This document shows, piece by piece, positions 1-16,121 of a stretch of DNA of 32,000 bases. The DNA is from Crocosphaera subtropica ATCC 51142 (lineage in GTDB: Bacteria > Cyanobacteriota > Cyanobacteriia > Cyanobacteriales > Microcystaceae): contig NC_010546.1 in NCBI RefSeq assembly GCF_000017845.1, positions 4,050,001 through 4,082,000 on the forward strand, in the 5' to 3' direction. The notes beneath the pieces are model-generated. The model ran no database searches. It was not told where the DNA came from and saw only the letters and a list, made by a program, of their open reading frames with translations. The position numbers and the translations under genes were made by a program. Position 1 is the stretch's first letter. The number at the start of each line of letters is the position of its first letter.

Positions 1-2053
1 TAATGAAATTTTCGTGTCCCTTTAAAGTTTGCTCACAAATACCTGTTTTAAGATGCCAAATTTTAATTTGATTATCCATTCCACCACTGGCAAAAATAGA
101 TTGATGAGGATGCAAACTGACCGATAAAACGCTTTGTGAGTGGCCTTGAAATTGTCTTAATTCTTGTCCAGTTGAAATTTCCCATAATTTAATAGTCGTG
201 TCTTCGCTACTACTCATTAAATAACAATTATCCTGACTAAATGATAAATCCCAAATATAGCTATTGTGACCATTTAAAGTCATTAAAGGGGTTAAATCGG
301 GAAAACACCAAAGACGAATCTTTCCCCCTGAATCTCCCGTGGCTAACAGTTGTCCATCATGACTAAATTTGAGTGAAAAAATACTGCCAAAAGTTTGTGT
401 AAATTGACAATGAATTAAACTCGCTTTGGTAAAGTTGACATTGTTTAAAATTCTTCCTTGTAGATGACCATGACAAATTGATAACCCAGAAAAATCATAG
501 TCACTTAAGTTAACCCCTAAGTATCGAGTTAAATTGAAAAAGTTGCCACCCCCATAATGATGAACTTGTTTCGGATATTGTTTAAGTTGTTTCAGAATTT
601 TATGACAATGTTGGCTCAAATAAGTTTGAGAGGTTAAACTCTGGGTTAATTTTTTCGCAATAGGTTCTAAAATCAGTCTTAATTGAGTTTGATGAAGATA
701 ATCTTTTACATTCGTAGGGGTTAAAGATAATTCTAAAAAGAGAGAAAAATTGAGGGAAATTAATTCAGTTGTTATGGTTTTAACTAAATGTTCGGTAACA
801 TATTCCATCACCACAGGCTGTAAAGTATAGGTATCTTGTTGATTTTCCAGCAGCGATCGCCATCTTAAAGATTCTAAAGCGTCTAAAATATGATTTGGCT
901 CAATCCAAGATGATAGTTGTTCAGTTAAGCTTTTGATCTTTGTCCATTCTCGATTAATGGCTAAGAGATAGATGATCTTTTTTTCTAAGTCTGATAACCG
1001 AGAAAACTGCTGATCAATCAACCGATGAATATTATTAAAAGCAAAAGTGTTTTGAGCTAAAAATTGTTGAATTTTCCCCTCAAATAAATCTTGGATAGAT
1101 GTTGCCAAAATCTTCAAAGCTAACGGATTACAACGATAATGTTCTACTAATTTTTGTTTTTCTTGGCTAGATCCTTTTAACCCTTTCGCATTTAAAAGAG
1201 CCATTCCTGCTTCTAATGATCCTCTTAAATTTAAAGAACGAACTGATAATTTTACTCCTTCTAATTCAGCCACCTCTAATGGTTTTTCTCGTGAGGTCAG
1301 GAGGAGACAACTTTGATGGTTATTTTCTCCAATTAATCGTAAGAGTTTGCCATAATCTTCATAGTCAAGACGATATTGACCCACAACTGTCTTCGGTTCA
1401 AATAGGGTTTCAAAGTTATCTAAAATAATCAAACAACGTCGATTTTTTAACCAATATAGTAACCTTTTAAAACTTAGTTCATCATCTTGTTGATCAGACA
1501 GAAAAGGAATTAACTCGATTAATAACGTATTTAAGAATGGAGCATTTGTCAGCGATCGCCAAATCACTAAATCAAACTCAGACGTTATTTCTTTCGCTAA
1601 TTTGATGGCTAAAGTGCTTTTGCCAACCCCTCCTAAACCCAATAAAGAAATTAATTTACAATTATCTTTTAAAAGCCAAGTTTTTAGCTTATTTAATTCT
1701 GATATTCTGCCCCAAAAATACTCAGTTTCAATTGCTTCTCCCCAATCTTGATGTTTATTAAATTTTAGGGTTACTTGTTGATTTAAGTCTGTTTTAGATT
1801 TGCGCTCTAAAGCTGCTTTAAAATTAGTTTTACTAACCTTTTCTCCTAAAACTTGGCTGAGTTTTTTCCATAATTTAGGACCAATATCTCGCCTTAAATA
1901 ACTATCAGCATAACCTGCCTTATCAGCAATTTGGTCATAAGTTTCATCTTGCCATGCTCCTACTAAGATGATAGTTTCTACATCACTGAGATATTTTCCT
2001 GTTGTTTTATAAACTAAATTATTTACTAATAGCAAAGATTGTTCAAGAGTCAT
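1..2053 (-). CDS. STAND NTPase: LuxR/sigma70-region-4-like HTH + NB-ARC/NACHT-type P-loop + pentapeptide-like linker + WD40 repeats; the C-terminus runs off the left window edge
   Basis: Reverse-strand ATG at 2053-2051. My translation begins MTLEQSLLLVNNLVYKTTGKYLSDVETIILVGAWQDETYDQIADKAGYADSYLRRDIGPKLWKKLSQVLGEKVSKTN. Walker A GLGGVGKSTLA, Walker B-like LIILDNFE, LLLTSREKP and CNPLALKI (GxP-like) motifs. WD40 units such as GHSQSVLSVSLHP...NQIKIW, and GHENFI at position 1. I spot-translated both ends (about 2053-1560 and 500-1) plus part of the middle. Continuity of the rest is inferred from the absence of any listed minus-strand ORF here (ORFs without an in-window stop appear to be omitted from the track). 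Confidence 0.8.
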   Translation of the reverse strand, partial: MTLEQSLLLVNNLVYKTTGKYLSDVETIILVGAWQDETYDQIADKAGYADSYLRRDIGPKLWKKLSQVLGEKVSKTNFKAALERKSKTDLNQQVTLKFNKHQDWGEAIETEYFWGRISELNKLKTWLLKDNCKLISLLGLGGVGKSTLAIKLAKEITSEFDLVIWRSLTNAPFLNTLLIELIPFLSDQQDDELSFKRLLYWLKNRRCLIILDNFETLFEPKTVVGQYRLDYEDYGKLLRLIGENNHQSCLLLTSREKPLEVAELEGVKLSVRSLNLRGSLEAGMALLNAKGLKGSSQEKQKLVEHYRCNPLALKILATSIQDLFEGKIQQFLAQNTFAFNNIHRLIDQQFSRLSDLEKKIIYLLAINREWTKIKSLTEQLSSWIEPNHILDALESLRWRSLLENQQDTYTLQPVVMEYVTEHLVKTITTELISLNFSLFLELSLTPTNVKDYLHQTQLRLILEPIAKKLTQSLTSQTYLSQHCHKILKQLKQYPKQVHHYGGGNFFNLTRYLGVNLSDYDFSGLSICHGHLQGRILNNVNFTKASLIHCQFTQTFGSIFSLKFSHDGQLLATGDSGGKIRLWCFPDLTPLMTLNGHNSYIWDLSFSQDNCYLMSSSEDTTIKLWEISTGQELRQFQGHSQSVLSVSLHPHQSIFASGGMDNQIKIWHLKTGICEQTLKGHENFI

Positions 2054-2267: not shown

Positions 2268-2314
2268 AAGTTAAGTCCTTAAGGTAAGAAAAGTTAAGTA
2301 TCAGCAAAGTTAAG
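2268..2314 (+). promoter_or_regulatory. Three exact direct copies of the octamer AAGTTAAG (2268-2275, 2291-2298, 2307-2314) in the divergent intergenic region; candidate operator/activator boxes
   Basis: Read directly: aaaAAGTTAAGtccttaaggtaagaaAAGTTAAGtatcagcaAAGTTAAGctt. Inverted near-copies: CTTAACTG at 2111-2118, CCTAACTT at 2333-2340, and exact CTTAACTT at 5073-5080 in the second promoter region. Confidence 0.35.
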
Positions 2315-2330
2315 CTTAAACGCTTCTATC

Positions 2331-2376
2331 TCCCTAACTTTTCTGTATCGACTCTCAGTTTAATTCAGTTTATAAA
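2331..2376 (+). promoter_or_regulatory. Putative promoter A: conserved box TCCCTAACTTTTCTGTA + -35-like TCGACT (2348-2353) + 17-nt spacer + -10 TATAAA (2371-2376)
   Basis: Paralogous to 5071-5116 at an ungapped offset of exactly 2740 nt (core 23-mer 20/23 identical). Lies 38 nt upstream of the ATG at 2414. GGAGAC Shine-Dalgarno at 2402-2407. Confidence 0.4.
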
Positions 2377-2413
2377 AGTAATATCAACCCATCAGATTAA
2401 CGGAGACAAAATC

Positions 2414-2674
2414 ATGAAACTTATTTATAGAGGGATTCAATACGATAACACCAACACACCTAACATCGTGAACCAAGAGAAACAACTGACAGCTAAATAT
2501 CGAGGAATCAGCTATCAAGTTTCTTTAAATTCCCAAAAAGCTAAACAAGTCAATCATATTTTGAAGTATCGAGGGGTTAACTATAACAGTCAACCTAACA
2601 AAAATGTTCTTCAAACCACTCCTTATTCTACTGGTATCGACGGTGATCATATTCCTAATCATTTAATCGCATAA
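2414..2674 (+). CDS. DUF4278-family small protein with three YRG(I/V)xY repeats
   Basis: 86 aa: MKLIYRGIQYD...AKYRGISYQ...LKYRGVNYN. The MKLxYRGxxY N-terminus is the hallmark of the cyanobacterial DUF4278 family. Good SD sequence. Confidence 0.7.
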   Translation: MKLIYRGIQYDNTNTPNIVNQEKQLTAKYRGISYQVSLNSQKAKQVNHILKYRGVNYNSQPNKNVLQTTPYSTGIDGDHIPNHLIA

Positions 2675-2788
2675 GACCATTGATACCTAATATCTAGAGA
2701 CTGAGGAAAGAAATTTCTAATCCCTATTGTTATCTTTAATTTCTATCTCAATCCCTTGCTAATTTACACACACATTTTGGACAAAATC

Positions 2789-3715
2789 ATGACTATTGCT
2801 AAACCTTCTCCGACGATTGAACTAAAAACATCAGAGAGAATTAACCTAAAACTTTTACCCTGGATAATCTCAACTCTACTCAAAAAAACTGACAGTAATT
2901 ATCAACCTACTCTCATCGGTCATATTCTCTTAGCCTTAGTTTTATCCTGTACCTTCTTTGGCAGTTATGCCCTACATATTCATCGTTCTGCTGCTCGTTT
3001 AAATCAATGGTTAAATCCTTCAACAACCGTGGAAACAGATGTTACGCTTCAACGCCTCGAAAGTAAGATGGCAGAAGCACAACAACAACTCAAAAAAACA
3101 ACAAAACCTGAAACAAAACATAACATCGAACGTACTTTATCTGAGCAAGAAAGACTGAAAACGCAATTATATGAAATCGATAAAAGACTGGAACGTTATC
3201 GATACATGATGGTCTTTTTTTACAGTCGTAATTATGCGTCAATTACTTTAACAACCTTTTCTGCAATCATTGCTGGTTCTTGTGTTTTATTAATTAGTCG
3301 TGCAGGTTGGCAACGCATTAATAATCTTGTCATTCATCTCTGTATTTTTTCTTCAGGTTGCGTCATTTTATTTTCTGACATCTCAGGTATCTTTCAATAT
3401 GACCTAAATTACCAAAATGTCGCTAATATTTATGGCGAACACATGACGCTAAAAAATGCCATTCGTAGCTTTTTTGCCACTGGGGGATTTCTTCAAGAAA
3501 ATCCAAATACCGGAGAAACCCAATACATCGAATTACAAGACACAAACCGCTTTATTTATTACGTCGATCAACAACTAACCAAGTTTAATCAAATTCCCTT
3601 AGCTATCGATAATTCTACCCTAGAACGAGTTGTTAATTCTGCCAATTTAGGAGATCAATTGGGAGATAGAATTTCCTTCGATGTCCCCGAATCTGCTAAG
3701 GAAATACCTCAATAA
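2789..3715 (+). CDS. 3-TM membrane protein with a central coiled coil; the TM hairpin plus following helix is loosely SLATT/DUF4231-like (candidate pore/holin-like effector)
   Basis: I prefer the ATG at 2789 (MTIAKPSP...) over the TTG at 2756. Hydrophobic helices: LIGHILLALVLSCTFFGSYAL, ASITLTTFSAIIAGSCVLLI, LVIHLCIFSSGCVILFSDISGI. Charged heptad-like stretch: LQRLESKMAEAQQQLKK...QERLKTQLYEIDKRLERYRY. The family assignment is pattern-based only. Confidence 0.6.
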   Translation: MTIAKPSPTIELKTSERINLKLLPWIISTLLKKTDSNYQPTLIGHILLALVLSCTFFGSYALHIHRSAARLNQWLNPSTTVETDVTLQRLESKMAEAQQQLKKTTKPETKHNIERTLSEQERLKTQLYEIDKRLERYRYMMVFFYSRNYASITLTTFSAIIAGSCVLLISRAGWQRINNLVIHLCIFSSGCVILFSDISGIFQYDLNYQNVANIYGEHMTLKNAIRSFFATGGFLQENPNTGETQYIELQDTNRFIYYVDQQLTKFNQIPLAIDNSTLERVVNSANLGDQLGDRISFDVPESAKEIPQ

Positions 3716-3780
3716 ACGATTAGCAGAAATTTAGTGAAAAGTTTGTCCATTTAGTTCCTATTATTCTGGAGATATTCATC

Positions 3781-4998
3781 ATGAACACCATCAAAGCAAC
3801 CACTCAAACTTTCCTCAAAAAAGTAGTAACCCAAGCCTCTCAACTCTCAGATAACCAAAAAGTACAAGTCCCCCAAGGAAAAACCTACCAAATTATTAAT
3901 TACGCTGAAGCAGAACAAGGTCACTACCAAGTAGAATTAAACTATGGTGCCGGAACCTGGTACCTTTGGTCAGGTCACTGGCAACTCCCCTGGGAAGATA
4001 ACCAAGAGGAAGCAGAAATTACAAAGACAGACTTCTTTTCCCCTGAAAATCTTAAAGCGATTATGCCAAATGCTACTTCGGCCGACATCGCTACCTATGT
4101 TAACCCCCTTAATAAAGTCTTGTCTGACTTTGATTTAGCCACAACCACTAGGGCTTGCGCCTTCATTGCTCAAATTGCTCATGAAAGCGGTTCTTTACGC
4201 TATAAAGAAGAAATCGCATCAGGGGCAGCCTATGAAGGACGACGGGACTTAGGCAACACTCAACCAGGAGACGGTAAACGCTTCAAGGGCAGAGGTTTGA
4301 TCCAACTCACCGGCAGGGCAAACTATCGTCAATGTGGACAGGCGTTAAATTTACCCCTAGAACAAAATCCCGAATTAGTTGTCAAAGATCCTTACACCAA
4401 TGCTGCGGTGGCCGGTTGGTATTGGCAAAGTCGTAACATTAACGCAGCAGCTGATGCTGGAGACTTTCAACGGGTGACACGGTTGATCAACGGCGGATTG
4501 AATGGATATAGCGATCGCCTTCAATATTGGGAGAGAGCTAAGAAAGTGTTAGGACAACAAGACCATCAAAAAAGCAATGTTCCTAGCTCTTGGAAAGCAG
4601 TGAACTGGAATGATGTCAATGCCAAGGTGTCCAACTATTTTACCGTCCGAGAAGTGATCAACGGCGATCGCCGTCGCATTCCCACTGATGACACCATTAA
4701 GCAAAACATTTTTACCTTAGCCCAAGAATTAGATAAGGTGCGAGAAGCCTGGGGATCTCCCATTATTGTCACCTCTTGGTATCGTCCCCCTGCCATTAAC
4801 CGTGCTATTGGTGGAGCGACCCGTTCTCAACATATTTTAGGAAAAGCTGCCGATATTCGACCGGTTCAGGGCAATTTATATCAATTCCAAGATTGGTTAG
4901 ATAAGGTAGCCTGGAAAGATAAAGCGTTGGGCTATGGGGCGAAAAAAGGCTTTGTCCATGTTGATCTGCGTCCTGGAAAGATTCGCTGGAATTATTAA
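3781..4998 (+). CDS. Two-catalytic-domain cell-wall hydrolase: N-terminal SH3-like module + GH19/COG3179 chitinase-lysozyme-like domain + peptidase M15A (zinc D-Ala-D-Ala carboxypeptidase-like) domain; no signal peptide
   Basis: GH19-type block: AFIAQIAHESGSLRYKEE...FKGRGLIQLTGRANY...AAVAGWYW...INGGLNG. M15-type zinc motif: SQHILGKAADI ... GFVHVDLRP. The N-terminus MNTIKATTQTFLKKVVTQASQLSDNQK is hydrophilic. Confidence 0.85.
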   Translation: MNTIKATTQTFLKKVVTQASQLSDNQKVQVPQGKTYQIINYAEAEQGHYQVELNYGAGTWYLWSGHWQLPWEDNQEEAEITKTDFFSPENLKAIMPNATSADIATYVNPLNKVLSDFDLATTTRACAFIAQIAHESGSLRYKEEIASGAAYEGRRDLGNTQPGDGKRFKGRGLIQLTGRANYRQCGQALNLPLEQNPELVVKDPYTNAAVAGWYWQSRNINAAADAGDFQRVTRLINGGLNGYSDRLQYWERAKKVLGQQDHQKSNVPSSWKAVNWNDVNAKVSNYFTVREVINGDRRRIPTDDTIKQNIFTLAQELDKVREAWGSPIIVTSWYRPPAINRAIGGATRSQHILGKAADIRPVQGNLYQFQDWLDKVAWKDKALGYGAKKGFVHVDLRPGKIRWNY

Positions 4999-5021
4999 AT
5001 CTTAGATGAGTTGACTAAACG

Positions 5022-5052
5022 GGGTTGATGAGTATCATCAACCCTAATTTTT
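5022..5052 (+). terminator. Rho-independent terminator after the hydrolase gene
   Basis: GGGTTGATGA (5022-5031), loop GTA, TCATCAACCC (5035-5044), then TAATTTTT. Perfect 10-bp stem. Confidence 0.6.
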
Positions 5053-5070
5053 GTCTTAACCGAAAATAAC

Positions 5071-5116
5071 TCCTTAACTTTTCTACATCGACTTTTCCAG
5101 AAAATCAGCCTATAAG
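5071..5116 (+). promoter_or_regulatory. Putative promoter B: conserved box TCCTTAACTTTTCTACA + -35-like TCGACT (5088-5093) + 17-nt spacer + -10 TATAAG (5111-5116)
   Basis: Paralog of 2331-2376. Followed by a 5' UTR with the hairpin GATCTCGAAGAGATC (5133-5147) and GGAGAC SD (5154-5159) before the ATG at 5170. Confidence 0.4.
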
Positions 5117-5169: not shown

Positions 5170-8100
5170 ATGTATGACTCAACTTCATCATATCAATACC
5201 AGGTGGGAGGAGGGCTACCCGCCAATGCCCCAAGTTATGTGGTTCGTAGTGCCGACGAAGAACTCTATCAAGCCCTAAAAGCAGGAACCTTCTGTTATGT
5301 TCTCAACTCTCGTCAAGTCGGTAAATCCAGTTTACGGGTAAGAGTAACCCAACGCTTACACCAAGAAGGCTTTGCCTGTGTTACTGTCGATTTATCGGGT
5401 ATTGGCAATCGCAACAGTAGCCCCGATCAATGGTATGCCGATATTATTATGCGTTTAGTTCGGGGTTTAGGACTGACAAAACAGATTCCTGTGCGTCGTT
5501 GGCTCGAAGAGCGGATGTTTCTCTCTCCTATCAATCGTCTAGCAGAAATATTACAAGAAGAACTCCCCAAAGCGATCGCCAAACCCATTGTTATCTTCTT
5601 CGATGAAATTGATAGTACCCTCAGTCTGCCTTTCAATACAGACGACTTTTTTGCGCTCTTACGGTCCTGTGACGAATACGATCATCTTACCTTTACCCTG
5701 TTAGGGGTAGCTACTCCCTCCGATCTCATTGCCGACAAAACCCGAACCCCTTTTAATATTGGTCGTGCCATTCAACTCCAAGGGTTTCAAGAAGCTGAAG
5801 TCAAACCTTTAATCTTAGGACTCACCCCAAAAGTGAAACAACCCCAATGGGTGATGAAAGAAATTTTAAGCTGGACAGGAGGACAACCCTTTCTGACCCA
5901 AAAACTCTGTCAATTAATGATTTCTCAAGGAGACAAGCTCCTAGATACCTCCCATGTGGCCAAGATTGTCCAAACTCAGATGATTGACAATTGGATCGCC
6001 CAAGACGAACCTCCCCATTTTCGCACCATCCGCGATCGCCTTCTTTGTCATGAACAACGGGCCAGTCGACTGTTAGGACTCTATCAACAAGTGTTAGAGG
6101 AAGGGCAACTGTTAGCCGATGATAGCCCCGAACAAATCGAACTCTTACTCTCAGGGTTAGTGGTGAAACAAGCCGGTTATTTACGCCCTTATAACCCCAT
6201 TTATCAAGCTATTTTCAACCTAGACTGGGTAGAAAAGCAATTGCAAACATTGCGTCCCTACGGAGAACGTCTTAACGCTTGGGTTCATTCTAACTACCAA
6301 GATCCCTCCCACCTCTTGCGAGGACAAGCCCTCATCGATGCCCAAACTTGGGCAAAAGGGAAAAACCTCAGTAACCAAGATTATCGCTTTTTAGCTGCCA
6401 GTCAAGAACAGGAAAAACAGGAAGTCCAAGGGACTCTCTTAATCACAGAACAAGCTAACCATATCCTAACCAAAGCTCAACAAAAAGCTAATCGCACCAT
6501 TCGTCGTGGTTTCTTGGGTTTATCCGTCGTCTCTGTTGTGGCCCTTTCCCTGTTAGGGATGGCGGGTTGGTTGACCCAGAAAACCGTCCGACAACAACAA
6601 CAGGTAGCTTTAGGAGAAGTCAAAGCTATGACCTTAGCTTCAGAAGCCTCCTTTGAAGCCCATCAAACCCTAAACGCATTATTAGAAAGCCTCAAAGCTG
6701 GTAACAAACTGACGGAGATAGGATGGCATCGAGCAGACACCGATCTCAAAATTCGTGTAGAAAAAGCCCTACATCAGTCTCTCTACCGAATACAAGAACA
6801 AAACCGCTTCAATGGCCATCAAGATATGGTCACACGGGTTAAATACAGTCCCGACGGACAAACCTTAGCCACAGCCAGTTGGGATAAAACCTTAAAAATT
6901 TGGGCTAAAGACGGAACCCTACTCCAAACCCTCAACGGCCATCAAGACGCAGTGTGGAGCGTTAATTATAGTCCCGATGGTCAATTCCTCGTCAGTGCCA
7001 GCCGAGATAAAACCGCTAAACTCTGGCGTGTGGCCGATGGAACCAAAGTGGCCACGCTTGATTTTAATGATGATTGGGTGGCTTGTGTGGGGTTTAGTCC
7101 CGATAGTCAACGGGTGGCTACCATGGGATGGAATGGGGTCGTCAAACTCTGGAATTTACAAGGGAAAGAGATCCTCTCCTTTAAAACCCACAATGCTCCT
7201 GTGATGGCTATTCACTACAGTCCGAAAGCAGAGTTAATTGCTACAGCGAGTCGGGATGGAACAGCCAAAATTTGGAATCTTCAAGGGGAAGCAGTGGCTA
7301 CCCTCCGAGGTCATCAAGATTGGGTCATGTATGTGAATTTTAGCCCCGATGGTCAAACGTTAGTGACAGGGAGTAAGGATAAAACCGCTAAACTTTGGGA
7401 TCTTCAGGGACGAGAATTAGCTACCTTAGAAGGTCATACAGAGACAGTAGGCAGTGGGGCGTTTAGTCGAGACGGTCAAACCATTGCCACAGCGGGTTTT
7501 GATAAAACAGTCCGTCTTTGGAATCGTCAAGGTAAACTCTTGAATGTTCTTCGTGGGCATACAGATGCGGTTTGGGGGGTGAATTTTAATGAAACGGGAC
7601 AAATTTTGGCCAGTAGTGGGGAGGATGGAACTGTACGCCTTTGGAATCTAAATCATGCCTTGAAATCAGCCCAAAGCCTCACTATACTCCCAGAAGAGGA
7701 TGCTGCTAAAGCCGATATTAGTCTCAGTCCCGATGGTCAATTATTAGGGACAGCCGGACGCTATACTATGGGGAAACTTTGGGATTTACAGGGGAATATG
7801 GTTGCTAAATTGAGCAGTCATGGGGATAACCTCAGAAGTATCGCATTTAGTCCCGATGGTCAATTATTAGTCACCGCAAGTCGGGATAAAACGGCTAAAC
7901 TGTGGAATCGACAGGGAGACGCTCTGGCTACCCTCCGTGGCCACCAAGGGGATGTGAGGGATGCCAGTTTTAGCCCTGATGGTCAATGGATTGTAACAGC
8001 CAGTTGGGATAAAACCGCTAAACTGTGGAATCGACAGGGACAAGTGTTATTCACCCTACAAGGTCATGAAGAGAGTATCAGACAGGTGGAGTTTAGCCCC

Positions 8101-8694
8101 AATGGTCAAATCATTGCCACTGCTAGTGATGATGGTACAGTTCAACTGTGGACTCCCCAAGGAAAGCCCTTAAACACCTTACGAGGGCATCAAGAAGGGG
8201 TGTTAGGGGTCGCCTTTAGCCCCGATAGTCAACGGGTAGTCACCGCCAGTAAAGATTCCACCCTCAAACTCTGGACGACCAAGGGGGAGGCGATCGCCAC
8301 GTTACGGGGCCATGAAACGGCAGTTAATTCTGTCAGTTTTAGTCCGGATGGTCAATTTATTGTCAGTGGGGGGAATGATGGTACGATTCGCCTCTGGACC
8401 AAAGACGGAACCCTCCTGCAAACCCTAGGGGGTCACGAGTCTGGGGTAAGAAAAGTCTTGTTTAGGCCCAATGGTCAGCAACTGATTTCTTCTGATGTAA
8501 CGGGGACTGTGATGCAGTGGGACTTAACCTTAGAGGCTAACCCTGAAACGTTACTAAAACAAGGATGTGAATGGGTTAAGGATTACTTGCAAACCAATCT
8601 CTATGTAAGCGAAACTGACAAACAGGTGTGCGCGCCGCAAAGCGGATCTCTTCGAGATCGCTTTCTTACTGCTAAAATATCCTTAACTCTCTAG
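5170..8694 (+). CDS. AAA-like (Pfam AAA_35-type) P-loop NTPase + single hydrophobic TM-like helix + 14 WD40 repeats (two 7-bladed propellers)
   Basis: Walker [11 protein letters not shown], Walker [19 protein letters not shown] and [14 protein letters not shown] blocks. Hydrophobic helix [22 protein letters not shown] (nt 6508-6573). Fourteen units of type GHQDxVxxVxFSPDGQxLATASxDKTAKLW. Confidence 0.9.
6814..8520 (+). repeat. Intragenic tandem array of about 123-nt WD40-coding units with near-identical DNA segments between some units
   Basis: GGGATAAAAC(G/C)GCTAAACTGTGGAATCGACAGGGA occurs at 7883 and 8006, exactly 123 nt apart with one mismatch. GATAAAACCGCTAAACT also recurs near 7008 and 7377. 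TTTAGTCCCGATGGTCAATTATTAG recurs near 7727 and 7847. Confidence 0.8.
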
Positions 8695-8710
8695 GGTGAC
8701 ATGATAGTTT

Positions 8711-10102
8711 ATGGCAGGTCGTCGTCAAGAACCCCTTATTTCTTTTGAAAATGCTTTAACCATTGCTGATCAAGCGGTTTTTTCCAAGACAGGAAGACAT
8801 CTCAAAAATATTGAAGTTGCTGTCTTACAAGGCTCTTTATTGGGTCATAATTACGACCAAATTGCTGATGAAGTGGGTTATGCACCAGAATATATCAAAC
8901 ACGATGTTGGTCCAAAATTGTGGAAACTTCTCTCGGCCAGCTTTGGAGAAAAGGTGAGCAAAACCAATGTGATGGCGGTCTTAGCGCAACAAACCCATCG
9001 CCATAACACCACTTCTGTGTTGCCTGGAGACAATGGCTTTAAACCTTCTGCCTTAGAACCCCCAGTCGGACCGGTTTCCCTTCACTCTCCCCTTTACCTA
9101 CAACGGCCTCCCATTGAATCTCGTTGCTACGACGAGATTTTACGTCCCGGTTCTTTGATCCGCATCAAAGCCCCCCGTCAAATGGGAAAAACGTCTCTGA
9201 TGCTGCGAATCTTAGACCATGCTAAACAACAATTAGAGCATGATGGGGTGATGACTGTAGCCTTGAGTTTACAACGGGCTGATAAAGCTGCATTTTCAGA
9301 TTTAGATCGCTTCTTACGTTGGTTTTGTACGGTCATTACCCGCAAACTCAAACTCCCCTATCGGGTTGAAGACTACTGGAGTGATACGTTTGGCAGCAAA
9401 AGCAACTGTACCGCCTATTTTGAAGATTGCATTCTATCAGAAATTGACGGGCCTTTAGTGTTGGCCTTAGACCAAGTGGATGAAGTCTTTCTACATCCAG
9501 AAGTGGCGGATGATTTTTTCACTTTACTCCGTTCCTGGTACGAAGAAGCTTCCTATGGAGACAGTGGCAACCCCCTTTGGCAAAACCTTCGTCTAATCAT
9601 TGTTCATTCTACAGAAGTTTATATTCCCCTTGATATTAATAAATCTCCCTTTAATGTGGGGTTAGCAATCGAATTACAACCGTTTACCTTTGACCAGGTT
9701 TCTATCTTGGCTAAATCTTATGCTCTAAACCTCTCAAACGCTGATCTTCAGCAACTTATGGACTTCATTGCTGGCCACCCTTATTTAGTACAACAAGCCC
9801 TGTATCATCTGGCTACCCAAAACCTTACCCTAGAAGGGTTGATCAACACAGGGGCAACCGATGCGAGTATTTATCATCATCATCTTCATCGATTATTACA
9901 AAATTTGCGAGAACATCATATTTTATCAACCACTTATCAACAAGTTTTAGAAGCATCAGCGCCGATTGAATTGGAACAATTACCAGCGTTTAAATTACAT
10001 AGTATGGGTTTGGTTGTTTTACAAGGAAATCAAGTAATCTCAAGTTGTCAATTATATAGGCAATATTTTTTAACAAAAAACATTGTCTGTGATGAAGGAT
10101 AA
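8711..10102 (+). CDS. LuxR/sigma70-r4-like HTH module + AAA-like (AAA_35-type) P-loop NTPase
   Basis: N-terminus LKNIEVAVLQGSLLGHNYDQIADEVGYAPEYIKHDVGPKLWKLLSASFGEKVSKTN is paralogous to the N-terminus of the 1-2053 gene. Walker A APRQMGKTSL, Walker B LALDQVDEV, DDFFTLLRS and SPFNVGLAIELQPF are paralogous to the 5170 NTPase. Only 16 nt separate it from the upstream stop. Confidence 0.85.
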   Translation: MAGRRQEPLISFENALTIADQAVFSKTGRHLKNIEVAVLQGSLLGHNYDQIADEVGYAPEYIKHDVGPKLWKLLSASFGEKVSKTNVMAVLAQQTHRHNTTSVLPGDNGFKPSALEPPVGPVSLHSPLYLQRPPIESRCYDEILRPGSLIRIKAPRQMGKTSLMLRILDHAKQQLEHDGVMTVALSLQRADKAAFSDLDRFLRWFCTVITRKLKLPYRVEDYWSDTFGSKSNCTAYFEDCILSEIDGPLVLALDQVDEVFLHPEVADDFFTLLRSWYEEASYGDSGNPLWQNLRLIIVHSTEVYIPLDINKSPFNVGLAIELQPFTFDQVSILAKSYALNLSNADLQQLMDFIAGHPYLVQQALYHLATQNLTLEGLINTGATDASIYHHHLHRLLQNLREHHILSTTYQQVLEASAPIELEQLPAFKLHSMGLVVLQGNQVISSCQLYRQYFLTKNIVCDEG

Positions 10103-10414
10103 GAGATTGTTCCTTTGGCTTTAATATTCAAGCTTCTAATTTCTGAGTTGTCAATTCCGATTCCAACGTTTACCCTAACCTAACCTGAGTTCGGAGTTAA
10201 AATATATGCAACGAAATAATGGGTGTTTTAGGCAACGATTTGATTAACCCTTTGAGCTTATCCCGAACTCAGGCTGACAGAAATTATACTCCCACAACCA
10301 GTAAAAAAGCGAGAAATAAAATTTTCTACTGCTCCATTTTTCTCAAGAGTTGCTAAGATGCTAAAAACTGTTGGCTCTAGATTAATCATGTCTTGAGACT
10401 GATGGCTAAATGTA

Positions 10415-10921
10415 ATGGATTCTACAAATAAGAAAATGCTTAAACAATTATTATGGAACGGGTGTCTAGGCGTAGTTATTTGCGCCACTGGTTTTGGGGG
10501 ATTTCCCGCTTATAGTCAGCCAGGAGAAATGATCGCTCAATCTTCTTCTGAAATGGCTGCTAAAGATATTTCACAACAAGAGTTAGAAAAATTTGCCAAA
10601 GCGATCGCTGATTTACGGGCGATCGATGAACAAACTCAGCAAAGAATGATTGAAGCGGTTCAAGCGACAGGAATGTCCCCCGAAGAATTTATGGAAATTG
10701 GCAAACAAGAAGATACGCAAATGAATCTCTCGGCCGATAAACAAATGCAGTTTGAAGAAGCCTTAGAAGCGGTGAGAGACCTCAATGAAGAAGATCGCAA
10801 GAAAAAACGAGTTGCTGTCCAAGAGGCAGGTTTAGAAATTTCACGGTTCAATGAAATCGGCAGAATTGTCGAAAATAATCGTGATCTACAAAAGCAAGTG
10901 GTTGAAATCTTATCTCGATAA
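10415..10921 (+). CDS. DUF4168-family exported protein
   Basis: Signal-like N-terminus (LLWNGCLGVVICATGFGGFPAYSQ). Blocks ISQQELEKFAKAIADLRAIDEQ and ISRFNEIGRIV are typical of DUF4168. Alternative start at ATG 10436. Confidence 0.7.
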   Translation: MDSTNKKMLKQLLWNGCLGVVICATGFGGFPAYSQPGEMIAQSSSEMAAKDISQQELEKFAKAIADLRAIDEQTQQRMIEAVQATGMSPEEFMEIGKQEDTQMNLSADKQMQFEEALEAVRDLNEEDRKKKRVAVQEAGLEISRFNEIGRIVENNRDLQKQVVEILSR

Positions 10922-11157
10922 TATAAAAGGGAGTATCAGCCAACTTAACATTACTCTGGTGGGTACTCCCTTTCCTTCATCCTGATATAAAAGCGGAGTT
11001 GAGTCTTTTTTTACGAGATAATAGGGGTTTGAAACTACTGCTTCCTCTGCTTACCCTACTATACAGTCTAGTATTCAAAGAGATTTCATTTAGAGAGATA
11101 TCCGAAAAAGACGAACAGAGGATTAAAATGTTTTAGATAGCACTCATTTTTCTTCCT

Positions 11158-12552
11158 ATGTTTAATTGGTTTCGCCGTAAAATTAATAAGACCGAATCAG
11201 AACCAGTTTCAGAACCCACTGAACAAGTGACCACTCCTGAAACTGAACCTTCTAGCAAACAAAGCGATCAAGAAGATTATTTAACTTGGGCAAAAACCGC
11301 ATATAAAAATATTCAACAACGTCAAACCCCCTCAACCTCACAGCCAGAAGCAACAGAACTCCCCCCAGAAACCACAGAACAGCCAGTTACTGAAGTTGAA
11401 CCAGAAACCCCTCAAAACTCTCAGTCCCCTCCAAAAGAGACTAAGAAAGAAGAAACCCCGGCGTGGATGCAAAAATCCGATCGCCTAGAAGCCCTCAAAG
11501 AAACGGCCATGGAAACGGCGGCCGTAGAAGACACCACTCCTATCACCTTCGACGAAGAATTTGTTTGGTCAGCGAAAGTTTTAGCAGCCCAAGGACGGGC
11601 CCCAGATGACATTTCAGAAGAAGAAATTAACTGGTTAAAACGGCTACGTCAAGGTTTAGGCAAAAGCCGTCGTGGGTTAGTTAACCAATTAAAATCCATC
11701 GTCGGTCAAGGGCCTCTGAATGAAGATGCCGTTATGGAAATTGAAGCCCTGTTATTACAAGCAGATACAGGGATAGAAGCGACGGATTACATTATTTCTA
11801 CCTTACAAAATAAACTCTTAGAAGAAGCTTTACCCCCAGAACAGGCACTAGACTACCTCAAAAGTATTTTACGGGATATTTTAGACCGTCCTTTGCAAAA
11901 AGTGGTTAACCCAGGGTTTGCCCCAGAAAAAGGGGTTTTGAATATTTGGTTATTAACCGGGGTCAATGGCGCAGGAAAAACCACAACCATCGGCAAATTA
12001 GCCCATTTAGCTCAAAAATCTGGCTACAATTGTATCATTGCTGCTGCTGATACCTTTCGGGCTGCTGCTGTTGAACAAGTGAAGGTTTGGGGTGAAAGAA
12101 CCAACACCCCTGTTATTGCTAACCCTGGCAAAAATACAGACCCGGCTGCTGTAGTATTTGACGGCATTTCGGCAGCCCAAGCCCGTCAAGCAGATTTATT
12201 ATTAGTAGATACAGCCGGAAGACTCCAAAATAAAAAGAATTTAATGGCCGAATTAGCAAAAATTAGGCGTATTATTGATAAAAAAGCAGATAAAGCTCAA
12301 GTAGAATCCTTGTTAGTCTTAGATGCCACTTTAGGACAAAATGGGCTACGTCAAGCGCAAGTTTTCTCCGAAGCAGCCAATTTGAGTGGGGTAGTTTTAA
12401 CCAAATTAGACGGAACAGCAAAGGGTGGGGTTGCTTTAGCGGTTGCCCAACAATTAGAATTACCTATTCGTTTTATTGGGGTTGGAGAAGGAATCGAAGA
12501 TTTACGACCTTTTTCTAGTTATGAATTTGTCGAAGCTTTACTAAATGAATAA
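11158..12552 (+). CDS. ftsY: Signal recognition particle receptor FtsY
   Basis: Acidic/Pro-rich A-domain followed by the NG domain: GVNGAGKTTTIGKLA, DTAGRLQNKKNLMAEL, TKLDGTAKGG. Confidence 0.95.
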   Translation: MFNWFRRKINKTESEPVSEPTEQVTTPETEPSSKQSDQEDYLTWAKTAYKNIQQRQTPSTSQPEATELPPETTEQPVTEVEPETPQNSQSPPKETKKEETPAWMQKSDRLEALKETAMETAAVEDTTPITFDEEFVWSAKVLAAQGRAPDDISEEEINWLKRLRQGLGKSRRGLVNQLKSIVGQGPLNEDAVMEIEALLLQADTGIEATDYIISTLQNKLLEEALPPEQALDYLKSILRDILDRPLQKVVNPGFAPEKGVLNIWLLTGVNGAGKTTTIGKLAHLAQKSGYNCIIAAADTFRAAAVEQVKVWGERTNTPVIANPGKNTDPAAVVFDGISAAQARQADLLLVDTAGRLQNKKNLMAELAKIRRIIDKKADKAQVESLLVLDATLGQNGLRQAQVFSEAANLSGVVLTKLDGTAKGGVALAVAQQLELPIRFIGVGEGIEDLRPFSSYEFVEALLNE

Positions 12553-12564
12553 TTAAGGTAAAAA

Positions 12565-12596
12565 AGTTTAGAAAAGGTATCAACTTTTTCTAAACT
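12565..12596. terminator. Hairpin between convergent ftsY and the TspO-related gene
   Basis: AGTTTAGAAAA (12565-12575) pairs with TTTTCTAAACT (12586-12596). The stem is AT-rich, so this is moderate evidence only. Confidence 0.45.
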
Positions 12597-12662
12597 AATC
12601 TTTTGATTAATTTAGGTATAACTGACATCTTGCAGGCCTTACAAATAAACTTAATAATGTAA

Positions 12663-12708
12663 GCATTCAGCACTCACCGTTGAGCAGTCAGGGTTATAGG
12701 AATATAAG
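12663..12708. repeat. STRR-like heptamer run (GCATTCA GCACTCA CCGTTGA GCAGTCA) + GGGTTATAGGAATATAAG; related to 16127-16156
   Basis: 7-nt periodicity read directly. Similar to GCGTTCA GCGTTCA GGTTATAGAAATATAG downstream of the nuclease gene. Confidence 0.35.
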
Positions 12709-12759
12709 TAGAAGATAATAGTGACCGAATCATAGCGAGAATAACACACACAGGAAAAT

Positions 12760-13536
12760 TCAATCTAGCCTTAATCTAGTCTTTTTTGCAGGGTTTAATA
12801 ACATCATGACTACCAATATTGTTGCGGAAACCCCAGACGCTAAGGCAATAGCAAGAATATCTAAATGACGCATCATAATAGCAATTAAAGCCCAAATAAA
12901 GACACCGCAATACACTCGATCACTTCTACGAATTATTATTAAAATACCTAGAATAGCTGCAAGAATAATTATAATTACTGTCCAAAAAATATTAGAAATA
13001 CCCAAACCATCCCATTTTATCCAATATAAAGCCAAAGCAAAGTTAACAATTGTAGCGACTGTAATCCATCCTAAATAAATACTAATAGGAAAATTAACCA
13101 ACCATTTTTGAGTTTTTGTAACCAAATTTAAAGGGATTTCTAATTTTAAATAGAGTAAAATCAAAGAACCCAAAATTATCAACATGGCTACAGTAGATAA
13201 GATAAAAAAGCGAGATAAAAATAAGAAAACCCAAACAATTTGCGCCAGACTACTAACTACTAAATAGTAACCCATTTTCTGTAAATAAGAATCATCCTTA
13301 TTTTTAGGTAAACCCTGATAAATGGCTAAACTAATTAATCCTAAATAAATAAGTCCCCAGATAGCGAAAGCATAACTCGCAGGGGTAATTAAAACATCCT
13401 TAAAAAGAGTATTAGAAATTTCTCCAATCGTTAAACCATTAATCGGCACAATGTTGGCTAATACATTAGAAAAAAAAGCAGCTAAAATGGCTAATAAATT
13501 AGCCCATTGTCTCATCATATTTTTGTCTAATTTCAT
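12760..13536 (-). CDS. Polytopic membrane protein, TspO/MBR-related (tryptophan-rich sensory protein-like)
   Basis: 258 aa with about 7 hydrophobic helices. The N-terminal block NVLANIVPINGLTIGEISN...ITPASYAFAIWGLIYLGLISLAIYQ resembles proteins usually annotated this way. Confidence 0.55.
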   Translation of the reverse strand: MKLDKNMMRQWANLLAILAAFFSNVLANIVPINGLTIGEISNTLFKDVLITPASYAFAIWGLIYLGLISLAIYQGLPKNKDDSYLQKMGYYLVVSSLAQIVWVFLFLSRFFILSTVAMLIILGSLILLYLKLEIPLNLVTKTQKWLVNFPISIYLGWITVATIVNFALALYWIKWDGLGISNIFWTVIIIILAAILGILIIIRRSDRVYCGVFIWALIAIMMRHLDILAIALASGVSATILVVMMLLNPAKKTRLRLD

Positions 13537-13886: not shown

Positions 13887-14159
13887 GTTAGAAATTTTTT
13901 ATATTTTTTTAAGACTTGCATCCCATTGTACAAGGTAACGGAACCAGTATTTTGAGAATAAACCGTGAAAAGGCAAAAATGCTAAGAGAATCTTTAGCTT
14001 ACTTCAGTGGCGTAATTAATTAACGTTTCATCAGGGTTAGACATCGCTATATTTAAAAGAATACATAGAAATTTTGAATGAATTAACTTGACATTAACCC
14101 AAAATAAGCAACTTACTCTTAAGCTTAGAGATAAATCAAACAATAACCAGCTTATCGTC

Positions 14160-16121
14160 ATGATTCAGAAAATTGCTCGTATTTTCTTAAGCACGTTATT
14201 CTGTATTTTACTGGTAGCTAAACCCAGTTGGGCTATTAATGTGTCTCCTGGCGATCGCATTGAACTCCAAGCCACTTCTTCCTTAGGCGTTCCCCTTCAT
14301 GATCGTCCGTCTCCAAGCTTAGTGGGCAGAACACCCGATAAAACCATTGCCGAAGTGGTAGCGATAGCCAATGATCAACGCTGGATTGAGATCAAGTTAC
14401 CCTCTGGGGCGCAAAATTGGATTGTAGAGCGATATATCGGTCGTATCGTCTCATCTTCGGGGGAAACCATCGATACTCGTGAAGTAACTAACTTGCTATC
14501 GGGAGAAGATAAGCTCACTGTAGCAGCCATGAACGTAGAAAATTTAGACCCAGACGATAGCGATCGCTTAAATCCTTTGGGTAAACTCATTGTTAACAAT
14601 TTAAAATCTCCCGATATTATCGTTCTGATTGAAATACAAGATAACGATGGTCCCAATAATTCAGACATTACCGACGGAACCGAAACTTATAATGCTTTAA
14701 TTGATGCCATTACCACGGCTACGGGACCTGATTATATTGCCTTTGATATTCCCCCTGGCGATGACAAAGACGGAGGACAACCGGGGGGCAATATTCGTGT
14801 CGGTTATCTATATCAACCCTCTAGAGTGGCGTTAAACCCAGGAACTGCAGGAACGGCAACAGATACAGTTACCGTTTTAGAAGGTCCAACATTATCCTTA
14901 AACCCTGGCCGCATTGAACCCGATAATGGTGCGTTTCAGAACAGTCGTAAGCCGATTGTAGCTGAGTTTCAATTTAAGCAAAATCCTATATTTATCATCG
15001 GTAATCATTTTGTTTCTCAACGGGGTGGTAATGATGATAAACGACGAAAACAAGCGACGGTGGTGGGGAATTTTGTTAAAGCGTTATTGTCTGAAGATAG
15101 CAAAGCCAATGTGATTGTCGCAGGGGATCTTAATGATGTGATTGATTCAGAACCTATTACTATTTTAGAAAGGTCTGGATTGACCAATTTGTCTAAGTTA
15201 TTGCCTCCAAGCGATCGCTATACCTATGAATTCAACAATAATCTTCAACAACTTGATTACATTTTAGTCAGTGACAATTTATTCACCACAGGTAAGAGTC
15301 AATTTGATATTGTTCATGTTAATGTCAATCAACCCAGTAATCTCGCTTTGAGTGATCATGATGTGGTACTCGGTCAATTTCCCTTACCTGAAATGGCTGA
15401 AATGCTAGAAACCCCGTCTTCTGAAAGCATTTTTCCAGACTTGAGTGGAGAAGCGTTACGCTCACGTTTAGCAACAGAATATCGAGTGAAAACCAGTTTA
15501 GGATACGATAATGCAAGAGACTTTATGTACAGCGAACTGGATAATGAAAACGGTATGGTTAGGGGAATTTATTCGGATTTTACCGTGGAAGTTAATCCTA
15601 ATTCTTCTCGTCCTCGATCAGATGCTTATCAAAAGGGGAAAGGAATTAATGCTGAACATTCTTGGCCTCAAAGTAAAGGAGCAACTGGGGTGGCTAAAAG
15701 TGATATCCATCATCTTTTTCCCACTCAAGTAAGAGTGAATAGTCTTCGGGGTAGTTTTCCGTTTGCAGAAATTGAGGATAGTCGCACCGAACGCTGGCTA
15801 ATCGATAACCGAGAGGAAAACACCATTCCTAGCAGTAATATTGATGCTTATAGTGAATGGATCAACGGTGGTTTTGAACCTAAAGAAAGTGTGAAAGGGA
15901 ATATTGCCAGAGCCTTGTTTTACTTTTACACGATTTATCGGGATCAAGCCGAAGAAGGTTTCTTTGAGGGGCAACAAGATACCCTTTGTGATTGGAATGT
16001 CAATGATCCTGTCGATGCTGCTGAACTCAAACGCACTCATGAAATTGCGCTAAAACAAGGCAATGATAATCCTTTTGTTGTTGATCCAACCTTAGCAAAG
16101 CGTCTCTATTGTAATCCTTAA
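14160..16121 (+). CDS. Secreted dual nuclease: signal peptide + SH3-like module + endonuclease/exonuclease/phosphatase (EEP) domain + endonuclease I (EndA-type) domain
   Basis: Start preferred at ATG 14160 (MIQKIARIFLSTLFCILLVAKPSWA). EEP blocks: AAMNVENLD, VLIEIQDNDG, IGNHF, AGDLND, DYILVS, LSDHD. Endonuclease I blocks: INAEHSWPQSKG, DIHHLFPTQVRVNSLRGSFPF, GNIARALFYFYTIY. Confidence 0.85.
   Translation: MIQKIARIFLSTLFCILLVAKPSWAINVSPGDRIELQATSSLGVPLHDRPSPSLVGRTPDKTIAEVVAIANDQRWIEIKLPSGAQNWIVERYIGRIVSSSGETIDTREVTNLLSGEDKLTVAAMNVENLDPDDSDRLNPLGKLIVNNLKSPDIIVLIEIQDNDGPNNSDITDGTETYNALIDAITTATGPDYIAFDIPPGDDKDGGQPGGNIRVGYLYQPSRVALNPGTAGTATDTVTVLEGPTLSLNPGRIEPDNGAFQNSRKPIVAEFQFKQNPIFIIGNHFVSQRGGNDDKRRKQATVVGNFVKALLSEDSKANVIVAGDLNDVIDSEPITILERSGLTNLSKLLPPSDRYTYEFNNNLQQLDYILVSDNLFTTGKSQFDIVHVNVNQPSNLALSDHDVVLGQFPLPEMAEMLETPSSESIFPDLSGEALRSRLATEYRVKTSLGYDNARDFMYSELDNENGMVRGIYSDFTVEVNPNSSRPRSDAYQKGKGINAEHSWPQSKGATGVAKSDIHHLFPTQVRVNSLRGSFPFAEIEDSRTERWLIDNREENTIPSSNIDAYSEWINGGFEPKESVKGNIARALFYFYTIYRDQAEEGFFEGQQDTLCDWNVNDPVDAAELKRTHEIALKQGNDNPFVVDPTLAKRLYCNP

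Follow-up and report, generated by a model that had tools for sequence, protein, structure and literature searches.

A candidate lysis or release operon of phage ancestry, with a non-canonical membrane partner, in the cyanobacterium Crocosphaera subtropica

The stretch of DNA analysed here (the window) comprises 32,000 nt of Crocosphaera subtropica (Cyanothece) ATCC 51142, positions 4,050,001-4,082,000 of NC_010546.1 on the forward strand, and contains two adjacent genes, cce_3922 and cce_3923, encoding respectively a membrane protein with three transmembrane (TM) segments and a predicted murein hydrolase lacking a signal peptide. We propose, with a probability of roughly 0.45, that the host maintains the pair as an operon of phage ancestry, acting as a lysis or release module that resembles the holin/endolysin-dependent (type 10) systems, the membrane partner being non-canonical. 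The core of a type 10 secretion system (T10SS) is formed by a holin and a peptidoglycan hydrolase without signal sequence (PMC13284979).

The enzyme gene, cce_3923, extends from 3781 to 4998 on the forward strand, and its 405-amino acid product is composed of an N-terminal mobile module (nt 3781-4035), a GH19 domain (about 4042-4554) and an M15 zinc peptidase domain (about 4588-4995). The bifunctional GH19 and M15 enzyme put forward in the original prediction is borne out by matches in Pfam (Glyco_hydro_19 at amino acids 137-218, E 2.5e-10; Peptidase_M15_3 at 307-395, E 3e-21), in PHROG, with the endolysin phrog_181 as top match (E 4.8e-62), and in the PDB, where the top sequence matches are the phage endolysins 9ms7 (E 1.4e-42) and 4ok7, not chitinases. 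The motifs quoted there are conserved in 16 orthologues, down to 45% identity: E135 of the GH19 domain is invariant and E143/E144 nearly so, with the catalytic glutamate pair spaced about 9 residues, as expected for the GH19 fold, and in the M15 domain H351, D358, H393 and D395 are invariant, the zinc triad H-x6-D ... H being satisfied. The protein is predicted to be a catalytically intact murein hydrolase of the endolysin type, joining a GH19 glycosidase to an M15 zinc peptidase. Its lack of a signal peptide, likewise anticipated, held in 16/16 orthologues: hydropathy, on which this call is based, and a motif scan revealed in none of them an N-terminal hydrophobic core, a twin-arginine motif, a TM or signal-arrest-release (SAR) segment, hence no Sec or Tat signal, and the highest 19-residue Kyte-Doolittle mean across the set was 1.24.

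Relatives of the enzyme place its origin among phage lysins. The first ~85 amino acids form a module without Pfam match that is shuffled among lysins, being found with GH19 alone (P0039 and phage Pam2_13), with M15 alone (P0051 and P0053) and between a GH24 lysozyme and M15 (P0043 and P0047), and in the L024 orthologue a C39-like cysteine peptidase takes the place of the M15 domain. Domain shuffling of this kind is the modular anatomy of endolysins. Two adjacent genes of Microcystis phage Ma-LMM01, gp068 (M15) and gp069 (GH19), match amino acids 93-399 of cce_3923 at about 51%, and Pseudanabaena phage Pam2_13 matches amino acids 10-258, that is, the N-terminal module and GH19. The 99.9-kb viral contig IMGVR_UViG_3300045998_000148 (loci L029 and L030) has two relatives about 9 kb apart, one full-length (44% identity, with a degenerate GH19) and the other consisting of the N-terminal module and GH19, and M15 domains 60-65% identical to that of cce_3923 are present in many viral contigs; the homologues in viral contigs are all distant. 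The phage ancestry of cce_3923 is clear from these sequence comparisons.

The two genes have the organization of a single unit. The gene of the membrane protein, cce_3922, occupies 2789..3715 on the forward strand (308 amino acids); a gap of 65 nt separates it from cce_3923 on the same strand, a GGAG Shine-Dalgarno sequence lies 9 nt 5' of the cce_3923 ATG, and a terminator-like hairpin at 5021..5055 (+), with an 11-bp stem holding 5 G-C pairs, a 3-nt loop and then AATTTTTGTC, starts 23 nt past the stop codon. From the single upstream promoter and the terminator we infer that both genes are co-transcribed. The two open reading frames (ORFs) stand on the forward strand at the positions given in the original prediction; since 7/7 homologues of cce_3922 begin MTIAK, the ATG at 2789 is favoured as its start over the annotated TTG at 2756.

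Cyanothece sp. BG0011 (L020) has the two genes side by side as well, as do two metagenomic relatives (L001 and L003), and two further pairs of this type are indicated beyond those four genomes. The flanks differ entirely among these loci: one has ZnuABC and a rhomboid gene, another encodes a flavodiiron protein and a giant lectin protein. The homology shared by BG0011 and the window spans exactly the module (window 2271-4999), and the adjoining block is inverted. The ratio of non-synonymous to synonymous substitution rates (dN/dS) is 0.11-0.16 for cce_3922 and 0.065-0.085 for cce_3923 at dS of 0.66-1.8, synonymous sites being near saturation in the comparisons of the pair. Neither in the window, by Pfam and gene survey, are there phage structural genes, so that a location outside any prophage is confirmed, nor do phage genes of any kind remain in the window or the orthologous loci. 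A decaying prophage remnant was considered and rejected, with dN/dS at 0.065-0.16, intact ORFs and catalytic residues, and no phage genes; because of this purifying selection and the housekeeping surroundings, the pair is regarded as a maintained cellular operon.

It could still be argued that nothing but descent makes the genes neighbours: the enzyme would be what is left of a prophage's lysin, and cce_3922 a cyanobacterial membrane protein unrelated to it. This would agree with the pairing being limited to one Crocosphaera/Cyanothece-like clade of seven sequences, and with the cce_3922 family never standing beside lysins otherwise in the loci examined. We consider it improbable, since dN/dS does not exceed 0.16 in either gene in spite of near-saturated synonymous sites, the pair, the operator and the spacing have been kept while the flanks were reshuffled, no phage genes are left in the loci, and other lineages repeat the layout of enzyme plus membrane protein with different proteins.

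The arrangement in those other lineages is the most telling outcome of the comparison. Elsewhere in cyanobacteria, orthologues of the enzyme have a membrane-protein gene on the same strand 43-198 nt downstream, whose product is in L006, L023 and L025 a 274-279-amino acid protein with a two-TM hairpin and HEAT-like repeats, and in L024 and L026 a 328-amino acid multi-TM protein; both are unrelated to cce_3922 and to one another. Enzymes 65-88% identical thus sit with three unrelated membrane proteins. Replacement of the membrane partner by a non-homologous one beside a retained enzyme is a known pattern of endolysin/holin lysis cassettes. The lysis-cassette logic of the original prediction is strengthened by the two additional partners, and its signal-less enzyme linked to a membrane protein stands; support is lacking for the holin, as cce_3922 matches no holin family.

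Among these orthologues, two have interrupted genes: in L025 (2360-4549) an ORF for an HNH endonuclease divides the enzyme gene, a homing-endonuclease-like insertion of a sort typical of phage genes, and in L026 (6001-8342) a transposase-like ORF does so.

Membrane regulators of murein hydrolases are widespread among bacteria, and the possibility has to be weighed that the enzyme is a plain housekeeping autolysin serving wall growth or division, with the membrane protein as its accessory. We regard this as very improbable indeed: the enzyme occurs patchily across cyanobacteria, has phage lysins as its nearest relatives and lacks an export signal, and interruptions such as those by the HNH endonuclease and the transposase would be intolerable for an essential function.

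A conserved operator-promoter, written as AAAGTTAAG-N19-21-CTTAACTTTTCTnnATCGAC-N17-TATAAA, precedes the module. In the window the putative inverted-repeat operator lies at 2306..2341 (+), as the palindromic AAAGTTAAG-N18-CCTAACTTT, within a 360-nt divergent intergenic region; its outer 9-mers form a perfect inverted repeat. The promoter-like element at 2335..2376 (+) consists of the core motif TAACTTTTCTGTATCGACT (2335-2353), inside which is a -35-like TCGACT (2348-2353), a 17-nt spacer and a -10-like TATAAA (2371-2376). The motif TAACTTTTCTnnATCGACT has exactly two copies in the window against zero expected, one at 2335, 5' of a DUF4278 gene that opens the unit, and one at 5075, 5' of a STAND-WD40 gene; the latter copy, TAACTTTTCTACATCGACT at 5075..5093 (+), is situated 77 nt 5' of that gene. 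With at most two mismatches the motif adjoins the module in seven other genomic contexts, and the aligned architecture is AAAGTTAAG, 19-21 nt, CTTAACTTTTCT-RY-ATCGAC (-35-like), 16-17 nt and TATAAN (-10-like). The inverted repeat, with 0-1 mismatch, is present in the control regions of the enzyme module or of a giant-protein gene in L001, L003, L006, L020, L023 (twice), L025 and L027, the chance expectation being far below 0.01 per locus. The element precedes a unit of DUF4278, three-TM and enzyme genes in the window, BG0011 and L001, with the core motif at an identical distance from DUF4278 in the last two, a three-TM and enzyme unit in L003, where DUF4278 is missing, and a unit of enzyme and two-TM/HEAT protein in L023. 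The composite element is absent from IMG/VR, in which the bare inverted repeat (66 matches) and the 16-nt core (78) occur at about chance level and never together.

The 19-nt direct repeats at 2335 and 5075 were also considered as att sites or an integration scar. This was rejected because in BG0011 the second copy has moved, in inverted orientation, together with the STAND-WD40 gene (L020 12442-12460, minus strand, in the block 7306-12460 of WD40 and AAA_35 genes), and because the motif aligns as -35 and -10 elements.

The element is shared with genes of very large proteins. Read on the other strand, it lies before giant genes (1,869 to 2,578 amino acids) in L006, L025 and L027, whose products are signal-less and contain LamG and ricin-type lectin domains, and in L003 and BG0011 this divergent control region is likewise common to the module and a homologous giant gene; such proteins are divergent from the enzyme module in four lineages (L003 487-7326(-), L006 1-5536(-), L027 1-5607(-), L020 3-4325(-) and L025 about 1323-1913(-)). 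In L023 a second operator (10204-10241) lies 5' of a gene for a 786-amino acid RTX protein (HemolysinCabind; 10490-12850), which suggests that the regulon covers exoproteins. The element being found also before giant-protein and RTX genes, the module would belong to a small regulon with very large, probably extracellular proteins, and the giant lectin-like proteins are possible cargo. The giant protein has no sequence relative in the PDB and, in Pfam and NCBIfam, only lectin domains; a Tc-toxin-like identity is for this reason unsupported.

These observations invite a wider proposal, which we hold to be rather doubtful: a hitherto unrecognized cyanobacterial lysis-type release regulon in which the operator would co-control a signal-less bifunctional hydrolase, one of at least three interchangeable large non-holin partners (in ATCC 51142 a member of the widespread, SLATT-like three-TM family, for which this would be a first function) and giant lectin-like and RTX exoproteins that leave the cell by this route; STAND NTPases might sense or regulate.

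The membrane protein is the part of the module that is hardest to reconcile with a lysis cassette. Its hydrophobic segments are at amino acids 41-59, 151-169 and 180-198 (TM1, nt 2909-2977; TM2, nt 3239-3304; TM3, nt 3326-3391). In an AlphaFold2 model built with 80 family members (pLDDT 88.9, pTM 0.80), a short helix and a short beta-hairpin lead to TM1, which is followed by a helical linker; a continuous helix comprising residues 107-172 passes into TM2; and TM3 extends into a helix (204-231) with an aromatic-rich stretch, after which come a small beta-hairpin and two helices. The turn between TM2 and TM3 is a tight 6-residue loop, SRxGWxxxN, in which G173 is invariant and W174 nearly so in the family; the hairpin is rich in Ser, Thr and Gly, and an acidic tail succeeds the folded C-terminal domain of ~100 amino acids. 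Hydropathy and model together show that the original prediction had described the protein accurately, with its three TM segments, long helix, TM hairpin and aromatic-rich helix.

The family is large. A profile search of 1.84 billion representatives gave 322 clusters (at 50% identity) sharing the full three-TM architecture, 144 of them at E below 1e-10, and a further search with the family alignment added 1 protein. No Pfam model covers the family, whose hallmarks (members P0128-P0276) are QPTxLGH before TM1, GW in the TM2-TM3 loop and the conserved C-terminal domain. Some members have accessory domains: SnoaL at the N-terminus, PD40 in the TM1-TM2 linker, LysM at the C-terminus, and Calx-beta. 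Such fusions suggest an N-in topology, with about 75% of cce_3922 in the periplasm.

Since the distant members L017, L019, L109 and L110 stand alone (4/4 are single genes amid housekeeping genes), the family must have some function independent of lysins; a general association of the three-TM family with lysins was accordingly rejected, as no member occurs either in the 80 viral loci that have relatives of the enzyme.

The likeness to the SLATT/DUF4231 group suggested in the original prediction is weak. Proteins of this group, with 2-3 TM helices, are predicted to act as pore-forming effectors in conflict systems (PMC9226505). No SLATT or DUF4231 profile matches cce_3922 at the curated threshold, and profile searches against SLATT and holin families left it without match in either. 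Sub-threshold Pfam hits were seen among the 80 relatives (SLATT_5, best E 0.0019, in 2/80; DUF4231, E 0.055, in 5/80), and 7 of the top 24 fold matches of Foldseek against BFVD are annotated as SLATT, weakly (E 0.004-0.1, TM-scores 0.3-0.5); the fold search of the PDB retrieved generic long-helix matches only, none better than E 0.08. The SLATT likeness of the modelled fold is weak, residing in a TM hairpin between long helices; the protein differs from that group in its additional N-terminal TM segment and its conserved C-terminal domain of ~100 amino acids, and no match was significant. Conflict genes of the nucleotide-signalling or reverse-transcriptase kind (SMODS, SLOG, CBASS) are found neither in the window nor in eight related loci.

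The probable periplasmic bulk of cce_3922 gives rise to an explanation in which the protein is a periplasm-facing regulator, anchor or immunity factor, whose helical bundle, made up of the TM1-TM2 linker and the last 100 amino acids, would bind the enzyme, position it at the murein or protect the producer, and in which the enzyme crosses the membrane otherwise. Support for it comes from the model, which puts the TM1-TM2 linker and the C-terminal region on one side of the membrane as a single confident domain, from the PD40 and LysM modules of relatives, typically extracytoplasmic and wall-associated, in the linker and after the C-terminal domain, and from the occurrence of the family without lysins. 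It is a serious rival, but we find it unlikely. None of the 16 enzyme orthologues has an export signal, no other exporter is encoded nearby, and the window contains neither a toxin-delivery domain nor a secretion system. Furthermore, specific binders should co-vary with the enzyme, yet enzymes 65-88% identical have three unrelated partners; such swapping is hard to square with specific binders, immunity proteins for instance.

Several observations weigh against the lysis or release module that we propose, and its main weakness is cce_3922 itself, which is large and has no holin family match. Taking these in turn: (i) at 308 amino acids it exceeds the holin size range of about 50-220 amino acids (PMC12843271); (ii) it has no Pfam match at E <=0.1, nor any to a PHROG lysis family, NCBIfam or PADLOC model; (iii) no relatives of it were found in 50,697 phage genomes (tblastn) or in IMG/VR; (iv) its probable periplasmic bulk would suit a regulator or anchor no less than a gate or pore, and the positive-inside rule applied to 80 family members gives an ambiguous topology; (v) no lysin adjoins the four distant family members mentioned; (vi) spanin-like genes are not present in the window; (vii) no membrane-protein gene neighbours the full-length enzyme orthologue in L008 or the M15-only variant in L028; and (viii) no cargo gene is adjacent in the window, where the place of BG0011's giant gene is held by a divergent STAND-WD40 gene.

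STAND genes flank the module on both sides. Downstream of cce_3923, an operon at 5170..10102 (+) encodes an AAA_35-like NTPase fused to WD40 repeats (5170-8694) and an AAA_35 protein with an N-terminal helical domain of ~90 amino acids (8711-10102), which looks LuxR/HTH-like by eye and is without PDB or Pfam match. On the left, a divergent ORF, 1..2053 (-), with its ATG at 2053 and extending past the window edge, also encodes such a protein, composed of an N-terminal domain of ~87 amino acids, which shares 44% identity with its counterpart in the 8711-10102 protein, a STAND/NB-ARC-like NTPase with a P-loop (GLGGVGKSTLA), and WD40 repeats. The downstream operon is not conserved beside the pair elsewhere, and its promoter has the core motif without the upstream operator half; it is context, possibly part of the same regulon. 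Away from the window, the L008 orthologue (66% identity) lies 77 nt 3' of a gene (L008 3378-5924) for an 848-amino acid AAA_16/nSTAND3 NTPase, in which a DEDD-type exonuclease-like N-terminal region can be recognized by eye; this is a second, independent adjacency of STAND gene and enzyme.

It may be asked whether a STAND-NTPase conflict system, for abortive infection or programmed cell death, uses the module to kill; the products of cce_3924 and cce_3925, of the left STAND-WD40 gene and of the L008 STAND gene would then be sensors that trigger autolysis by way of the hydrolase and its membrane partner. The flanking genes and the L008 arrangement would fit, as would the core motif common to the STAND-WD40 operon, with which it moved in the BG0011 inversion, and the weakly SLATT-like fold of cce_3922, given that SLATT proteins are predicted conflict effectors (PMC9226505). 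Adjacency is, however, weak evidence because STAND-WD40 genes are very common in cyanobacteria; L001, L003, L006 and L023 have no STAND gene beside the module, PADLOC returns nothing for the pair, and the STAND promoters lack the upstream half of the operator. We judge this explanation quite unlikely.

The first gene of the unit in ATCC 51142, 2414..2674 (+), encodes an 86-amino acid DUF4278 protein (Pfam E 5.8e-19) that also matches two PHROGs of unknown function. A domain of this type makes up part of IF17, an inactivating factor of glutamine synthetase, and often has a glutamine riboswitch upstream (PMC6212724); an Rfam scan of the window gave no matches, and no such riboswitch 5' of this gene. 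It is present in L001, L002 and L020, with dN/dS of 0.24-0.28, and missing from L003, from which it would be dispensable for the unit. The remaining genes of the window encode FtsY, AccA, FolE, a short-chain dehydrogenase, histidine kinases, a GGDEF protein and STAND NTPases. A 677-amino acid protein (14088-16121) with Exo_endo_phos and Endonuclease I domains is a probable nuclease unrelated to the pair. Our literature search found no publication mentioning cce_3921 to cce_3925.

The proposed lysis or release module can be compared with several characterized systems. The T10SS examples considered were ChiWXYZ of Serratia, ChiH/ChiP and TtsA of Salmonella, the lysis cassette of Yersinia entomophaga and TcdE/TcdL of C. 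difficile. With these it has in common a chromosomal, non-prophage membrane protein together with a phage-derived, signal-less peptidoglycan hydrolase. ChiX is given as an endopeptidase (Hamilton et al. 2014, as cited in PMC13284979), to which the M15 peptidase domain of cce_3923 can be likened, and the module in relatives adjoins and is probably co-regulated with very large signal-less proteins, as happens with Tc toxins. It differs in that cce_3922 is not a recognizable holin (308 amino acids, no family match and no phage relatives), in the lack of spanins, in the cyanobacterial host, in the two catalytic domains of the enzyme and in the absence of an adjacent cargo gene in the window. A literature search found no publication linking T10SS with cyanobacteria.

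Among cyanophages, ORF70 of MaMV-DC, a relative of Ma-LMM01, has been characterized as holin-like (PMC12843271), and in Ma-LMM01 the 145-amino acid gp070 comes directly after gp068 and gp069, at the matching position. The likeness lies in GH19 and M15 domains about 50% identical, in an N-terminal module common to Pam2_13 and in enzyme genes adjoining that of a membrane protein; whereas the phage has separate catalytic genes and a small, one-TM holin-like protein, the domains are here fused, the partner is unrelated and there are no phage genes.

A holin whose bulk is a periplasmic domain regulating hole formation has a precedent in holin T of phage T4. That protein has one TM segment in contrast to the three of cce_3922, its Pfam family gave no hit in the scan, and no antiholin-like partner was identified. 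In sum, cce_3923 is best called a new member of the endolysin-type enzymes, and the novelty of the system is to be sought in a non-holin partner from a large family, in the interchangeable partners and in the operator link to giant exoproteins.

For the proposed module we envisage the following sequence of events. The enzyme would accumulate in the cytoplasm, reaching the murein only once the co-transcribed cce_3922 admits it or perturbs the inner membrane. The murein would thereby be opened locally, or a fraction of the cells would lyse, whereupon large proteins without an export signal of their own, with the giant proteins as cargo, would be released. Expression would be set by the conserved operator-promoter, which giant-protein and RTX genes have in common with the module in relatives.

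If this is true, holin/endolysin-dependent (type 10) release, characterized so far in enterobacteria and clostridia (PMC13284979), would be extended to cyanobacteria, and a first functional handle would be gained on a three-TM family with hundreds of uncharacterized clusters. The module would provide an exit route for giant proteins devoid of export signal, or a means of controlled autolysis, in these organisms, and would bear on the collapse of blooms, on how DNA and proteins are set free in mats and on self-lysis engineered for biotechnological use. A concrete, testable entry point toward the regulator and the inducing condition is offered by the conserved operator.

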